Notes under the pieces: generated by a model
Databases searched by the model: none
What the model was told of the DNA's origin: nothing
What the model saw: the letters and a program-made list of their open reading frames with translations, nothing else
Shown here: positions 27,369-40,238 of the stretch, piece after piece
How the letters are laid out: every line of letters starts with the position of its first letter
How positions within the stretch are numbered: position 1 is the first letter of the stretch
Made by a program: the position numbers and the translations under genes
Source of the DNA: Escherichia virus TH13
Sequence record: MT446391.1
Direction: 5' to 3' (one strand)
DNA: 45,377 nucleotides

Positions 27369-28075
27369 TTTAAATTTTCCTCGTTAACCGCTATCGCGAA
27401 GCCGCGCGGAGTGAGTGAGCGGATTAATTTTGTACGAGCGGATTTACCACCGAGGCGACTATACTGTTTCGAGTACCCTTTTTCAACGAAAACAGGTTTC
27501 TTCTCTGGCATACGGAAGCCGTTGCCGGTCCATAAGCAAGTCAGCTTCGGATATGAATCGCGGGCGTTGATGTATTCCGGGAAGAGCGGGTGTACGTCAT
27601 CCTCCGGCAGATACCCCCCATACTCCCACGGGTCGAACGAGTGATCCGGCTTGCGCCACTGGGTGGAAAGCACACTGCGCGGATTCTCAATCATATATGG
27701 CACTTCGAAGAAGTCACCCAGGTAAGCGGCGATCTTCGCGGTGCGCACCGCCTTAAGCTGAAAGGCGGGGTCTTTTGCACGTTTGCGCGGGAAAGCTGGC
27801 GCGCCGCTCACTGCCAGATCCGTACACGGAGGGAACGCATAGATTATATCCGGCGTACCGAAATCGCCATTCATCGCGCGGTCCACAAAGTCCATATCGA
27901 TAAACTCATTGCGATATCGGATTCCACGACCATAAATCCGGTAGTCAAGGTATGATCCGTGATCGGCTTCGGAGTAGTTGAAGCAATAACACTTATGCCC
28001 CATCTCGGCAGCACGCTCAATCATCAAGCCGCTGCCGTCAAACAATGACCAGATTGTCATTTTCGCAATAGTCAT
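27365..28075 (-). CDS. DNA (cytosine-5)-methyltransferase-like protein, unusually short
   Basis: 236 aa; motif I-like SLFDGSG, motif IV-like FPPCTDLAVSG (Pro-Cys dipeptide), motif VI-like MIENP; no room for a typical target-recognition domain or motifs IX/X. Confidence 0.5.
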   Translation of the reverse strand: MTIAKMTIWSLFDGSGLMIERAAEMGHKCYCFNYSEADHGSYLDYRIYGRGIRYRNEFIDMDFVDRAMNGDFGTPDIIYAFPPCTDLAVSGAPAFPRKRAKDPAFQLKAVRTAKIAAYLGDFFEVPYMIENPRSVLSTQWRKPDHSFDPWEYGGYLPEDDVHPLFPEYINARDSYPKLTCLWTGNGFRMPEKKPVFVEKGYSKQYSRLGGKSARTKLIRSLTPRGFAIAVNEENLK

Positions 28076-36282: not shown

Positions 36283-36534
36283 TTATTTCGTCTCCCAGCG
36301 GTCAATCGTTCTTGCTTCGGATGCAACCGCAAAGCGAACATATTCCAGATTGGAGTCCGCCCAAATATAAAAGTCGGGGTTAGTAAAGGTGGTGCGCTTG
36401 ATTTGCGCGGGCGTGTTACGGCGTTTATCTATTACGGCAACGCGGGATTGAAAGCTGCCGATGCGTTCGAATAGCCAATAGTACGGGCGCTGGTCGCGGG
36501 AATCCACCGCCTCGATTAGCGTGAATCGTGCCAT
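36283..36534 (-). CDS. hypothetical protein
   Basis: 83 aa; RBS gaggacgag. Confidence 0.5.
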   Translation of the reverse strand: MARFTLIEAVDSRDQRPYYWLFERIGSFQSRVAVIDKRRNTPAQIKRTTFTNPDFYIWADSNLEYVRFAVASEARTIDRWETK

Positions 36535-36544
36535 TGTCTCGTCC

Positions 36545-36573
36545 TCTAAAAAGAGGCCCGCTAATATGCGGGC
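36545..36573 (-). terminator. rho-independent terminator after first early genes
   Basis: minus-strand ggcccgc-auauua-gcgggcc hairpin followed by U5. Confidence 0.6.
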
Positions 36574-36582
36574 CGGATAATA

Positions 36583-36712: not shown

Positions 36713-37231
36713 TTAGTCTTCCAGTTCGAAATAAGTCTCGACGATTTCTTTTAAATCTTTGTGGAAGTCTTCGACGTCGTCGTCTTCCAGCTTGGCGATT
36801 GATTTGATCTCGAACGCTTCCAGCAGGTCGTCAAATTCGTCGTTAGCATCGTCGTCATCGCCACCGGCGATAATCGCGGCGTACTGCTTGATCTCGTCGC
36901 GCATCTCTGCCAGCGGATCGGCATCTTTCTTCCCTTTGCCTTTCGCCGGAGCTTTTTTACCCTTCGCCGGTTTTTCGTCTTCGGCTTCTTCATCGTCGTC
37001 ATCTTCTACGACTTCTTTTTTGGCCTTACCTTTAGCCGGGGATTTTTTAGATTTAGCCGGTTTTTCGTCTTCGGCGTCATCGTCGTCATCTTCGACAACT
37101 TCTTTTTTGGCCTTAGACGGCTTCTTATCTTCCTGTTTACCAACGGCAGCGCCAACGGTTTCATAATGCTTTGCAATGGTTTCCAGTGCTACTACGCCGC
37201 GAGTGATCAGGTTTACGATTTGCTCAAACAT
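36713..37231 (-). CDS. acidic charged-repeat protein, first gene of early arm
   Basis: 172 aa from ATG (MFEQIVNL...) with RBS ggagatatacc; two 30-aa repeats EVVEDDDD-AEDEKPAK-KK-PAKGK-KK and an acidic C-terminal helix; track ORF extends upstream without RBS support. Confidence 0.6.
   Translation of the reverse strand: MFEQIVNLITRGVVALETIAKHYETVGAAVGKQEDKKPSKAKKEVVEDDDDDAEDEKPAKSKKSPAKGKAKKEVVEDDDDEEAEDEKPAKGKKAPAKGKGKKDADPLAEMRDEIKQYAAIIAGGDDDDANDEFDDLLEAFEIKSIAKLEDDDVEDFHKDLKEIVETYFELED
36966..37114 (-). repeat. in-frame coding tandem repeat (90-bp period) in acidic early gene
   Basis: gccggtttttcgtcttcggc...cttcttttttggcctta repeated twice. Confidence 0.6.
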
Positions 37232-37468
37232 GGTATATCTCCGATTGGTTAAGTTTAGGTGTCGGCAGTTAACTTCGTCGCTGGCCTTAACATATTGCCA
37301 GGTTACGCGTTCTCCCGTTCGGGTAGTGGACCTGGTTATATAATCACGGTTGGGAATCCTGACACTTCGATCCGGCCCCTGCGTTGCCCCTCTCCAGTTT
37401 GCGTCCTGCATCCTGTCGACGGAGTGAATGATAGATTGGTTGCAGGATAGGTGTCAACAACTAATTTC

Positions 37469-37502
37469 AAAAAAAAAGCGCCGAGGCAAAATGCGACGGC
37501 GC
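37469..37502 (-). terminator. promoter-proximal rho-independent terminator in early control region
   Basis: minus-strand gcgccg..cggcgc hairpin (plus 37478..37502) followed by U9. Confidence 0.6.
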
Positions 37503-37527
37503 TAACCAATAAGAGACAATGAGACGA
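37469..37527 (-). ncRNA. candidate short leader/small RNA between leftward promoter and terminator
   Basis: predicted leftward promoter at 37533..37561 followed within about 60 nt by a strong terminator; no ORF. Confidence 0.25.
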
Positions 37528-37532
37528 GAATT

Positions 37533-37561
37533 ATTATTACACGCGTGCGCGCCCGTTTCAA
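37533..37561 (-). promoter_or_regulatory. sigma70-like leftward promoter (TTGAAA-N17-AATAAT)
   Basis: read on the minus strand; back-to-back with the rightward promoter. Confidence 0.45.
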
Positions 37562-37573
37562 TATCCAAAGGAT

Positions 37574-37602
37574 TTGACACCGTGCAGTTTTGGGTGTAGT
37601 TT
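37574..37602 (+). promoter_or_regulatory. sigma70-like rightward promoter (TTGACA-N17-TAGTTT)
   Basis: consensus -35 TTGACA, 17-bp spacer, weak -10; about 30 nt upstream of the HTH gene. Confidence 0.45.
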
Positions 37603-37633
37603 CGTTGGTCATTAACCAACTGAGGGCAGAGCA

Positions 37634-37963
37634 ATGAATGTAAACGACGCAATCGAAATGTTAACGAAGACTGTTTGCAGTGAGACAAGCCGGTCGTGGG
37701 CATACACCGATGCCGTGGGGGCTGTGTTATTTGAAATCGAACGACTGCGGCTTACCGAAAAAGAATTGCGCGCCAGGCTGGAACTACTCAACGGTACAGC
37801 AGCAAGCAAGCTGCAAAAACACAATGAAGAAATGGAAGAATACAAAAAGCAGGTTATCCGTTTGCGCGCCGAGGGTAAATCATGGGCGATGATTGCCGAG
37901 TTGACCGGGATTAATCAGAGCACAGTGCGCTCCTGGGTACGCAATAATAAAACTTCTAAGTAA
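37634..37963 (+). CDS. putative DNA-binding regulator (C-terminal helix-turn-helix)
   Basis: 109 aa; coiled-coil middle, C-terminal GKSWAMIAELTGINQSTVRSWVRNN HTH-like segment. Confidence 0.5.
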   Translation: MNVNDAIEMLTKTVCSETSRSWAYTDAVGAVLFEIERLRLTEKELRARLELLNGTAASKLQKHNEEMEEYKKQVIRLRAEGKSWAMIAELTGINQSTVRSWVRNNKTSK

Positions 37964-37973
37964 GGCCACGGCA

Positions 37974-40238
37974 ATGAGCTTGATTAAATTCGCTGTAACA
38001 AAACCCGCTAAAAAAGGCGAAAAAGCCAGGGCGGAAAACTTCCAGATGACGACCGATGAGTTTTTCGAATTTATCAAAGATGCGAAAGAAATCTCCTCGG
38101 TGCATATCAACAAGACGGAAGATAAAGCCGAGTATGCGCGCCGCAAGCGTAAGGCCGATGGCATCGTGGCGTATACCAGTGACGGATTGCGTCGTAAGAC
38201 CAGTGCGGTGGACCGCTCGATCCTGTTCTTTGATATTGACCGCACCGACACCCGCACCCTGCGCCGCTGCCGTAAGGCGTTCATCGACGCGGGACTGGAA
38301 CATGTATTTCACACCACAACCGGCGACCGCCACCCGCTGAAAGGTGGCACGCGTTGCGCTCGTTTCCTGGTGCTCACCGACAAGCCTGTACCGGCGGAAG
38401 ACCTAGGCCGCGTACAGTATGCACTGTTACACCAACTGGGCCTGTCAGATGTGGACTTCGATGATTGTACGAAAGACACAAACCGCCTTATGTACCTACC
38501 ACACCAGCAGTCCGTTGTTAAGTGTCACTACGGCAAACGTGCCCGCGTCCGTCGTCTGCTTCGCCTGGCGGATAAGCTGGGAGTGGAAAAAGAGGAAGTA
38601 CGACGCGAACTGACCCAGGGCGATGACGGCGTGGCTGACGGTATTCTGGATTGGTGCTTCCAGGCGGGATTCGAACCGCTGTCGTCCGGTCGTGGTTATG
38701 AAGTGCCATGCCCGAACGAACACCTGCACAGTGGTGAAGGGTCCACCGCTATCATGGTTAAGGATGGCGAGATCCGTTTCAAGTGTATGCATACCGGCAA
38801 CGAGTGTTGCTCGGAGCTGAACAGACACCAGCACCTGGCGCTACGTCTTATCGGGATCCCGGACCACCTGAACGTCGAACCGCACAACATGTCACGTAAG
38901 CAAATCGCCGCCATCCTTCCAGGACTGGACGACGAGGAAGTGGAATCGTGCTATGCGCATATCGTTGATGCGGTCGGAGACGGCGACGAGTACGGCGGAT
39001 GTACAGATGCAGACCTGGACAACGAGCCGGTTGCGCTGTTCAGTAAGCACGACCCGATCATCGAGGGGCTGATTAACTTCAAATCGACCTGGTATCTTGC
39101 TGGCGAGTCGAACATCGGTAAATCGTTCTACGTGCTGGGCCAGATGGCGTCAGTATCTGCCGGTATTCCGTTCGGCGGCGCGAAGGTCGTCCAGTGCCAC
39201 AACTTCTATTTCGACGCGGAAGGTGGTGAAGCCTCCAACCAGCGTAAGGAAGCATTGCAGATCAAATATGAGCACGACCTGGACAAGCTGCACATTATCG
39301 ATCTGCAGTCACGCGGCTGGGATATCACCAGCAAATCCGGCTTGCGTGAAGTTATCAGCTTTATCAACCGCACCGCTAACGGCGAGCCGGTTGGCCTGGT
39401 GGCGTTCGACTCACTCAACCAGACTGTCGCGTTGCGGTCAGCCGATGCTAAACCGTTCGACGAGAACAACGCCAGCGATATGGGCGAAGTGGTCAAAGCG
39501 CTGAAGGCTATTGCGGAAAACACAGGCGGCAGTGCGGGAGTCATCCACCACCCGGCGAAAGGTGCAAACGGCAGCAGATCTCCCCGCGGGTCCGGCGCGC
39601 TGCATGGTGCTGTCGATTCCGCGTTCTTCCTGGAGCAACCGGACGACAATCAGCCGGGCCAATTGAACCTGTACCATGAGAAGGCACGTAACGGCATCAA
39701 GCAAGCGCCGCGCGGCTTCGTCCTGCTTAAGTGCAAGGTTAAGGTGGATCTCCGCAAGTCAGAGGCGTTCGAATCGCACCAGTCCACCAGCACCGGGCCT
39801 GACTTCGGTGATGTGGTTGCAGGATGGGACGTCAAGCCGATCGCATCAACGCCACGCGACGAGACTCTTTACCTCGTACCTGTCGCCCTGGCACCGTTCG
39901 CTATTGAGCAGGCGAAGGCCGCGGGTAAGGCAGCAGTTAAGGAAGAGAACCCCGCAGGACCGCGCAACGAAAAAGAGAAAGTGCTTTATGCGGCGCTGGA
40001 AAAACTGATGGAAGATAACCCGGACCATACCGGATTCAGTAAATCGGCAATCGTCCGCCAGGCTGGACTTGCGAAAGGTGGCACATCGACGAAGGCAATA
40101 GACGATATGGTCGAGCGCGGCGTGCTCGGTTTCTATACAGATCCGCACACCGGGGCCATCTATGGGTCATCGAATATCGTCATCAAAACGAATATACCCA
40201 TCACGCTTTCGGCGACCGATGATGATTTAAAAGATTAA
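37974..40238 (+). CDS. DNA primase/helicase-like replication protein
   Basis: 754 aa; Zn-binding-like CPNEHLHSGEGS...CMHTGNECC; C-terminal RecA/DnaB-like ATPase segment (Walker A-like AGESNIGKS, ...VAFDSLNQ...). Confidence 0.6.
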   Translation: MSLIKFAVTKPAKKGEKARAENFQMTTDEFFEFIKDAKEISSVHINKTEDKAEYARRKRKADGIVAYTSDGLRRKTSAVDRSILFFDIDRTDTRTLRRCRKAFIDAGLEHVFHTTTGDRHPLKGGTRCARFLVLTDKPVPAEDLGRVQYALLHQLGLSDVDFDDCTKDTNRLMYLPHQQSVVKCHYGKRARVRRLLRLADKLGVEKEEVRRELTQGDDGVADGILDWCFQAGFEPLSSGRGYEVPCPNEHLHSGEGSTAIMVKDGEIRFKCMHTGNECCSELNRHQHLALRLIGIPDHLNVEPHNMSRKQIAAILPGLDDEEVESCYAHIVDAVGDGDEYGGCTDADLDNEPVALFSKHDPIIEGLINFKSTWYLAGESNIGKSFYVLGQMASVSAGIPFGGAKVVQCHNFYFDAEGGEASNQRKEALQIKYEHDLDKLHIIDLQSRGWDITSKSGLREVISFINRTANGEPVGLVAFDSLNQTVALRSADAKPFDENNASDMGEVVKALKAIAENTGGSAGVIHHPAKGANGSRSPRGSGALHGAVDSAFFLEQPDDNQPGQLNLYHEKARNGIKQAPRGFVLLKCKVKVDLRKSEAFESHQSTSTGPDFGDVVAGWDVKPIASTPRDETLYLVPVALAPFAIEQAKAAGKAAVKEENPAGPRNEKEKVLYAALEKLMEDNPDHTGFSKSAIVRQAGLAKGGTSTKAIDDMVERGVLGFYTDPHTGAIYGSSNIVIKTNIPITLSATDDDLKD

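Follow-up and report, generated by a model that had tools for sequence, protein, structure and literature searches.

This report concerns the divergent early control region of Escherichia virus TH13 (MT446391.1) and, within it, a short leftward transcription unit that is predicted to encode a small RNA (sRNA). The window, by which we mean the whole stretch of 45,377 nucleotides (nt), belongs to Dhillonvirus, virulent Escherichia coli siphoviruses with genomes of about 45 kb; over the query it shares 100% identity with Escherichia virus TH11, and many further phages are 95-99% identical to it. According to the annotation of a close relative, McMelon, the locus is the single divergent control region of the genome. 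The leftward operon on the minus strand, about 13 kb long and devoted to replication and recombination, begins with the gene of an acidic protein, is continued by small open reading frames (ORFs), and also encodes a PD-(D/E)XK exonuclease, a single-stranded DNA-binding (SSB)/annealing protein, a DNA polymerase, a helicase, methylases, a ligase and a polynucleotide kinase. On the rightward (plus-strand) side, the gene of a helix-turn-helix (HTH) protein, which matches HTH_23, HTH_28 and Sigma70_r4_2, is followed by the primase-helicase gene (PF13481), small ORFs, lysis genes and terminase. The promoters PL2, PL1 and PR, the predicted sRNA with its terminator, and a structured leader RNA lie between the two operons (Table 1).

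Table 1. Features of the divergent control region and of the genes around it, with positions in the window.
Feature	Position	Strand	Remarks
PR, rightward early promoter	37574..37602	+	TTGACA (37574-37579), N17, TAGTTT (37597-37602); 9/12 to consensus
PL2, promoter of the predicted sRNA	37533..37561	-	TTGAAA (37561..37556), N17, AATAAT (37538..37533); TG-extended -10 (TGT)
PL1, leftward early promoter	37428..37457	-	TTGACA-N18-TATCAT; 11/12 to consensus
Predicted sRNA, about 57 nt	37469..37526 (37525->37469)	-	5' GUCUCAUUGUCUCUUAUUGGUUA, hairpin, U9
Conserved seed core CUCAUUGUCU	37514..37523	-	Reads YUCAUUGYYU in the most distant lineages
Intrinsic terminator	37469..37503	-	Hairpin 37503..37477 (7-bp outer and 3-bp inner stem), U9 37477..37469
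Predicted primary target GGCAAUGAG	37970-37978	+	-4..+5 of the primase-helicase gene; complementarity to sRNA seed
Possible secondary target, HTH gene translation start region	37611..37638	+	Duplex -18 to -20 kcal/mol, main-lineage variants
Possible secondary target, 83-aa gene start region GAGACAAUGG	36531..36540	-	10-bp run in UGUC-seed lineages
Structured leader RNA, 161 nt, from PL1 transcription start	37260..37420 (37420->37260)	-	8 helices, GNRA-capped hairpin, 5' hairpin with GGA loop
Near-palindrome GTTGGTCATTAACCAAC	37606..37622		About +1 of PR; candidate operator; one AACCAAY copy
HTH gene, 109 amino acids (aa)	37634-37963	+	
Primase-helicase gene	37974-40238	+	ATG 37974; second in rightward operon
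Acidic 172-aa protein gene	36713..37231	-	True start ATG 37231; first of leftward operon
83-aa gene	36283-36534	-	

Promoters were scored against the sigma-70 consensus TTGACA/TATAAT with a 16-18-bp spacer, as matches out of 12. Three sites in the genome, counting both strands, reach 10/12 or better, and two of these, PL1 and PL2, lie within one 130-bp stretch; PL1 is the top match of the genome, and PL2 scores 10/12 in addition to its TG extension. A promoter scan of the local 4 kb was not significant by itself (3 promoter-like sites, with 3.2 expected). All three promoters have sigma-70-type hexamers and spacing, and the hexamers are conserved across lineages; those of PR are invariant among Dhillonviruses, with a variable spacer. 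The initial annotation had described PL2 and PR as back-to-back promoters about 12 bp apart. Both hexamer pairs were found as described and are conserved in relatives, the two -35 hexamers being separated by 12 bp. PL1, which it had missed, follows the terminator U tract at a distance of 12 bp and is conserved in all relatives examined. PL1 is predicted to be the true leftward early promoter, a reading that corrects the promoter map and with which the leftward operon would not need read-through. PR would drive the HTH gene, the primase-helicase gene and the genes downstream. The GenBank record of HK578 annotates one rightward and two leftward promoters at the locus and that of CS16 annotates a terminator; no record marks an RNA gene there, and the sRNA gene is thus unannotated.

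From the predicted start of PL2 transcription (37526 or 37525) to the end of the U tract is a distance of 57 nt, and a further 238 bp separate the U tract from the first leftward ATG; the hairpin and U9 run within about 60 nt of the promoter, and their position about 240 bp ahead of the first early gene, had been read correctly in the initial annotation. The 57-nt RNA folds at -16.7 kcal/mol (z = -3.4), with its 5' 22 nt unpaired and the first U of the U9 tract paired within the hairpin stem. This fold is the single dominant one, and no fold of the 57-nt RNA competing with the terminator hairpin was found. The GC-rich hairpin followed by a U tract has the form of an intrinsic terminator; runs of nine or more T occur only twice in the window, the T9 tract included, and a GC-rich hairpin precedes each of them. 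The RNA overlaps no gene and so is not a cis-antisense RNA, and it has both a transcription unit of its own and a conserved single-stranded seed, as a trans-acting sRNA would. Rfam covariance models, including that of C4 antisense RNA, gave only sub-threshold chance matches to the sRNA, the best of which were ncS54 (18 bits, threshold 43) and STnc480 (21 bits, threshold 72). A 26-aa plus-strand mini-ORF beginning at 37519 was also considered and rejected; its frame is broken by 1- and 2-nt indels in two relatives (L010 and L013), arguing that the constraint on the region is not protein coding.

We aligned the locus from 16 Dhillonviruses and about 20 further contigs. Sequence conservation starts exactly at the predicted start site of the sRNA: the six positions that separate the -10 element from the start (37527-37532) vary freely, and from 37526 to the hairpin no position differs among about 20 main-lineage genomes, in which the neighbouring ribosome-binding region of the HTH gene has many substitutions. 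The U tract ranges from 8 to 13 in length. In one distant relative, L013, the hairpin carries two compensatory pairs (GCGCCG/CGGCGC to UCCCCG/CGGGGA). L013 and L015 came from IMG/VR, and the other distant relatives were found by a primase-helicase protein search with contig look-ups; their primase identities are 88% (L082), 83% (L083), 81% (L084) and 67-69% (L085-L089). IMG/VR and metagenome scans with the primase alignment added no new lineages. Between PL1 and PR, the distant lineages have a promoter with a TATAAT-like -10 element, a GCGCGC-rich spacer, a YUCAUUGYYU segment, a GC-rich hairpin and U9-13. The same arrangement is present in twelve lineages in all, including L013, L015, L083 and L085-L089, with primase identities as low as 67%. 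Their stems comprise at least five unrelated sequences, with unrelated stems and U9-13 in L015 and L085-L089, and the seed core YUCAUUGYYU is the only segment kept in all lineages. The hairpin is therefore kept as a structure and the 5' segment as a sequence, which is the signature of a base-pairing sRNA. The initial annotation's suggestion that a short RNA is made finds strong comparative support, since promoter, 5' seed, lineage-specific hairpin and U run appear in every lineage examined. That PL2 and the terminator form a self-contained sRNA gene is, as a prediction from these alignments, strongly supported.

The sRNAs of L015 and L085-L089 contain a second conserved block, CUCCUGAA, which resembles an anti-Shine-Dalgarno sequence, directly precedes the terminator hairpin and is absent from the main lineage. 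A second block of the L015 sRNA pairs with mRNA 19-30 nt upstream of the primase AUG, giving a total duplex energy of -31.2 kcal/mol.

The complement of the conserved seed core (AGACAAUGAG) includes an AUG. About 450 nt from the sRNA gene, on the other strand, the start region of the primase-helicase gene is complementary to the seed of its own lineage in every lineage. When contiguous pairs were counted in the fixed register CAU:AUG, the run was 9 bp in the window (GGCAAUGAG, with one G-U pair) and in L089; 10 bp in L084, L085 (AGCAAUGAAC) and L087; 11 bp in L088; and 12 bp in L013, L015 (GACAAUGAGCAA), L083 (GAGACAAUGAGA) and L086 (AAGCAAUGAGAA). Runs of 9-12 bp were thus found in 10/12 lineages. 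The two partners have changed together: most lineages have UGUC in the sRNA and GACA in the mRNA, whereas L085, L086 and L088 have UGCU and AGCA. The pair at +5 has gone from G:C to A:U in L085, and that at +6 is C:G in L015 and A:U in L013. Seed-target complementarity has been maintained through these exchanges. When sRNAs were reassigned to targets at random, only 9/10,000 trials reached the matched-pair mean run of 9.9 bp. Cofolding left the terminator hairpin intact and placed the seed over the AUG, with a free-energy difference (ddG) of -8.5 kcal/mol in the window, -14.2 kcal/mol in L013 and -20.3 kcal/mol in L015; shuffled targets equalled the energy of the real duplex in 19/1000, 2/1000 and 0/1000 cases, respectively. 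In five lineages (L083, L085, L086, L087 and L088), the primase start region had the top score among all local genes. These results suggest that the 5' end of the sRNA probably masks the start codon of the primase-helicase gene.

Several observations weigh against this target. The run is 7 bp in L082, and in the L004-type lineage it is 5+3 bp with one internal mismatch. The figure of 9/10,000 from the random reassignment overstates independence and is not a true probability, because the lineages are related by phylogeny. The duplex of the window's own lineage is short (9 bp with one G-U pair, ddG -8.5); there, the primase start comes only 3rd to 5th among the 65 translation start regions when the register is fixed, and 13th or lower when duplexes are scanned freely, so that the evidence from this lineage alone is modest. 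Pairing with the primase mRNA does not account for the invariance of UUAUUGGUUA, the 3' half of the seed in the main lineage. No obvious equivalent RNA was found in Tsm2, Shemara or Bas76, which belong to related genera and have a homologous primase. Finally, when 28 Gb of E. coli genomes were searched for the seed by blastn, nothing matched at E <= 10, a result that is not informative on host targets.

The Bas76 locus (L080, Kagunavirus-like) has a 480-bp divergent control region and, at 740-960 on the minus strand, a possible non-coding transcript of about 230 nt. This putative transcript ends at the hairpin GGGCAGGCTTAAGCCTGCCC followed by TTTAGTT and has no evident homology to the Dhillonvirus sRNA; a related genus may thus have an RNA that is analogous to it.

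On balance, we consider repression of primase-helicase translation by the PL2-terminator sRNA to be the best explanation of the locus, and a reasonably probable one. In the proposed mechanism, host RNA polymerase would start at about 37526/5 and terminate at 37469, releasing an RNA of about 57 nt whose 22-nt unstructured 5' end, terminator hairpin and U tail make up the architecture of an Hfq-binding trans-acting sRNA. The seed CUCAUUGUCU would pair across the primase-helicase start codon; this pairing would most likely block ribosome binding and limit synthesis of the replication initiator. The sRNA would be transcribed constitutively, following the logic of plasmid copy-control RNAs, although encoded in trans. 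Its terminator would also insulate PL1, the independent leftward driver, from PL2 transcription. The seed of the main lineage is longer (UCUCUUAUUGGUUA) and may in addition touch the start regions of the HTH gene and of the first leftward gene. The comparisons show the arrangement of the sequence, its conservation and the covariation of sRNA and target; we infer that the sRNA is produced, that its exact ends lie at the predicted positions, that it represses rather than activates, and that Hfq might have a role.

The initial annotation had offered a different account as well, in which early-arm expression needs read-through of the terminator, so that PL2 would be the early-left promoter and the operon would depend on a promoter-proximal attenuator or antitermination switch. 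PL2 and the terminator do lie upstream of the leftward operon and point in the same direction, and some read-through into PL1 transcripts is possible. However, PL1, the best sigma-70 match of the genome, stands 12 bp past the U tract in every lineage, and in other phage families the leader RNA begins directly at a promoter of its own. Moreover, the 57-nt RNA has a free 5' end and no alternative to its one dominant fold, and it is the 5' seed that is conserved across lineages and the hairpin that differs entirely from one to the next, whereas the opposite would be expected of a structure-switching leader. We therefore rejected the attenuator model on the strength of PL1 and the single dominant fold, and regard it as very improbable; the accompanying suggestion that the HTH protein affects read-through also found no support. 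We also considered a role at the level of DNA or transcription, with a functionless RNA: an insulator against occlusion of PL1 by PL2 polymerases, a device for supercoiling or for competition of the back-to-back promoters, or a primer or activating transcript associated with an origin, next to iteron-like GCAACCAAY repeats. In its favour, the terminator ends 12 bp before the -35 element of PL1, PL2 and PR overlap in L015, the region adjoins the primase-helicase gene, and GCAACCAAY is tandem in the PL1 spacer and single in the PR 5' untranslated region of the distant lineages. Yet a by-product RNA would not retain an invariant single-stranded 5' segment while its hairpin was repeatedly replaced, and a role in DNA does not account for a seed that covaries with a site 450 nt away. 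We judge such an element quite improbable.

The sRNA could also be real and have its main targets elsewhere: at the starts of the HTH gene and of the acidic 172-aa gene through the UCUCUUAUUGGUUA segment, at the 83-aa gene, or in host mRNAs. No single target stood out when the whole genome and the 65 start regions were scanned for free duplexes. In these scans the start regions of the HTH gene and of the left gene (-18 to -19 kcal/mol across main-lineage variants) ranked 2nd and 4th of 65, and their free duplexes are stronger than that of the primase because they pair with the extra UCUCUUAUUGGUUA segment. A 14-nt inverted repeat, 37238-37251 and 37503-37516, is 86% complementary; a perfect AGACAAUGAG occurs in the HTH start region of L082 and L084; and the 83-aa gene start offers a 10-bp run. 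Against these targets, the HTH, left-gene and 83-aa start regions do not covary with the seed in the UGCU-seed lineages, where run lengths are 4-6, and the HTH pairing is not retained in L015. In addition, the AUUGGUUA segment is absent from the sRNAs of L015 and L085-L089, and the AACCAAY motif nonetheless persists in their DNA, arguing that the motif is independent of the sRNA. Given the lack of covariation in the distant lineages, we treat the three start regions as possible lineage-specific targets and think it unlikely that the main targets are other than the primase-helicase mRNA.

The AACCAAY motif itself is concentrated at the locus. Three copies of TAACCAA (37245 on the minus strand, 37503 and 37613 on the plus strand) lie within 380 bp, compared with eight in the whole window, and the wider motif (G/T)(C/T)(A/T)AACCAA(T/C) is found at 37245-37251 (-), 37435-37441 (-), 37503-37509 (+) and, as a palindrome, at 37606-37622. 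The near-palindrome is invariant, whereas the adjacent Shine-Dalgarno region is variable. The motif is present in the PL1 spacer (GCAACCAATCT), and in L015 and L085-L089 it is tandem in that spacer and occurs once in the 5' untranslated region of PR. It recurs in the control regions of Tsm2 and Bas76, and after the leader RNA in unrelated phages. The idea that the TAACCAA cluster reflects pairing of the sRNA with both flanking starts was weakened by the distant sRNAs, which lack AUUGGUUA. We conclude that AACCAAY is probably a protein-binding DNA site, with an HTH-protein operator or an initiator iteron as candidates for its identity.

The other RNA predicted at the locus is the leader that begins at PL1. 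A blastn search with the intergenic region gave unexpected matches in unrelated phages over window positions 37344-37395, and homologues of about 160 nt were found in Drexlerviridae (slyngel, swan01, tunus, Motto, PHB17 and KMI8), Jilinvirus (Arya and PT1), Murrayvirus (Lumpael), Sortsnevirus (IME279 and sortkaff) and unclassified phages, which makes at least five phage groups. The leader always has the same sense as the flanking genes and begins directly at a promoter; it is not followed by a terminator, and 20-50 nt separate it from the first start codon. R1, a covariance model built from a hand-curated structure, found one full-length copy in the window (100.9 bits, E = 1e-21) and 25 more in other loci. 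It detected no leader in Dhillonviruses with a 148-nt deletion at the locus (L004, L006, L007, L013 and L015). Over the 26 sequences, 95.8% of cells are paired, compared with 32-41% for slid partners, in an alignment that was fitted to the model and hence leans toward the structure; 17 pairs have changed on both sides, and the covariation score is 0.362, compared with 0.119 for shuffled alignments (0/500). The R1 structure is thus backed by compensatory substitutions, and by covariation only, the folding energy of the single sequence being unremarkable (z = +0.37). Rfam had no match to the leader of the window or to those of four other phages, and among 185,579 bacterial species genomes it is essentially absent, with one match on a 42.7-kb contig of a metagenome-assembled genome. 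On this comparative evidence, the leader is a new, previously undescribed RNA family. No Dhillonvirus transcript map was found in the literature, and neither the sRNA nor the leader sequence occurs in any paper searched; a public RNA-seq set, PRJEB75248 (PMC11301168), covers EHEC Sakai infected with bov25_1D, a phage with 97% identity to the window.

Candidate functions of the leader are 5'-end stabilisation, translation control, processive antitermination, and protein or ligand binding. A gene-specific regulator was rejected because the downstream genes are unrelated between phages. Antitermination at an intrinsic terminator within the leftward operon was rejected as well, there being no correlation between the two: the terminator is present with or without the leader. 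This internal terminator (36555-36574 on the minus strand, GGCCCGCATATTAGCGGGCC followed by the T-rich tail TCTTTTT) lies about 850 nt from PL1, directly before the 83-aa gene, and is kept in all Dhillonviruses examined; long leftward transcripts must therefore read through it. The GGA triloop of the leader's 5' hairpin resembles a CsrA site. An invariant hairpin-loop AGUG (about 37364-37367) is complementary to an invariant internal-loop CACU (about 37326-37329), both on the minus strand; the two could form a loop-loop tertiary contact, for which there is no covariation signal as neither segment varies.

Public annotations extend the first leftward gene into the leader RNA, as a 232-aa ORF (36713-37411, minus strand) in place of the true 172 aa; the in-frame extension upstream to 37411 is leader RNA and not coding. 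A 50-aa ORF has also been called across the sRNA/PL2 region. Such calls are found in McMelon (L051, 35370-36059 and 36115-36267) and SO-1 (gp46), and both ORFs are probably annotation artefacts. The PL2 spacer (37539-37555, CGGGCGCGCACGCGTGT) is GC-rich, with about 15 alternating purines and pyrimidines and the palindromes GCGCGC and CACGCGTG; its conservation is unusual for a spacer, the GCGCGC core being retained in all lineages, and it may serve as a binding site for a protein or as an element that responds to supercoiling (Z-DNA-prone). A direct repeat of about 35 nt (37243-37276 and 37434-37468, 76% identity, spacing 191-192) makes the leader 3' end and left-gene translation start resemble the -35/spacer region of PL1 (GAAGTTAACTGCCGACACCTAAACTTAACCAATC and GAAATTAGTTGTTGACACCTATCCTGCAACCAATC), and may be a duplication remnant tied to gain or loss of the leader. 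The third site scoring at least 10/12 (27458-27486, minus strand, TTGAAA-N17-TATAGT) is a possible internal promoter of the leftward operon, close to the junction of the helicase and methylase genes.

The predicted sRNA resembles enterobacterial and prophage trans-acting sRNAs of the Hfq class, such as DicF of the Qin prophage, in its conserved single-stranded 5' seed, GC-rich hairpin and long U tail, and in its imperfect 9-12-nt pairing across the start codon of an mRNA encoded elsewhere. Unlike these, it comes from a siphovirus that is strictly virulent and is predicted to act on a replication gene of the same phage; its binding by Hfq is putative, and it has no sequence or Rfam relationship to them. 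Plasmid copy-control RNAs (R1 CopA/repA, ColIb-P9 Inc RNA and ColE1 RNA I) are transcribed from the opposite strand of the target gene itself, with which they share full complementarity. The likeness to them lies in a small RNA with a strong, apparently constitutive promoter that would limit a replication initiator at its translation start, and whose output would scale with gene dosage; the Dhillonvirus sRNA differs in being encoded 450 nt away and in having only a 9-12-nt seed match. Like the phage RNAs P4 CI, P1/P7 c4, N15 CA RNA, P22 sar and lambda OOP, it is predicted to pair with short complementary sites of an operon for early functions or replication; in the case of P4 CI RNA, the operon under control is that of the alpha primase and contains a primase-helicase gene. 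Those RNAs have immunity or lysogeny roles in temperate elements, most are processed or cis-antisense, and CI and c4 act via premature termination. The Dhillonvirus sRNA is not cis-antisense and, as far as can be read from the DNA, not processed from a longer transcript, and the Rfam C4 family has no match in the locus. The locus shares with promoter-proximal attenuators and lambda N/Q antitermination an intrinsic terminator within about 60 nt of a promoter and upstream of an operon, and departs from them in having a stronger independent promoter after the terminator, no antiterminator fold, and no nut- or qut-like element identified. By functional analogy only, the leader may be compared with HK022 put antiterminator RNAs or riboswitch-type aptamers, since it directly follows an early promoter ahead of a long operon and folds compactly into several helices, with many unpaired nucleotides that do not vary; it differs in having no Rfam family, in its unrelated downstream genes, and in a presence uncorrelated with the internal terminator.

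Dhillonviruses are common virulent coliphages that are represented in the BASEL collection and in therapeutic phage panels, and to our knowledge nothing is known of their regulation. The analysis flags mis-annotated ORFs at the locus, and the natural compensatory variants UGUC/GACA and UGCU/AGCA provide a ready-made experimental design. A more far-reaching view, which we find doubtful, is that the replication and early-gene hub of this strictly virulent phage houses an RNA-only control circuit, in which a dosage-sensing trans-acting sRNA throttles the primase-helicase and the leader, found in at least five siphovirus groups, represents a new class of cis-acting RNA. In such a circuit the leader could act as an antiterminator that modifies RNA polymerase, as a sensor of a ligand or protein, or as a decoy against defence systems, and not as a simple stabilising 5' structure. 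The leader family is widespread, being shared by several families of enterobacterial siphoviruses, and it has covariation in its support and no entry in Rfam; we see it as a good candidate for a new class of cis-regulatory RNA. If the proposed role of the sRNA is true, and it tunes the replication initiator, the phage would join the few documented examples of lytic phages that control their own replication through a trans-acting sRNA.

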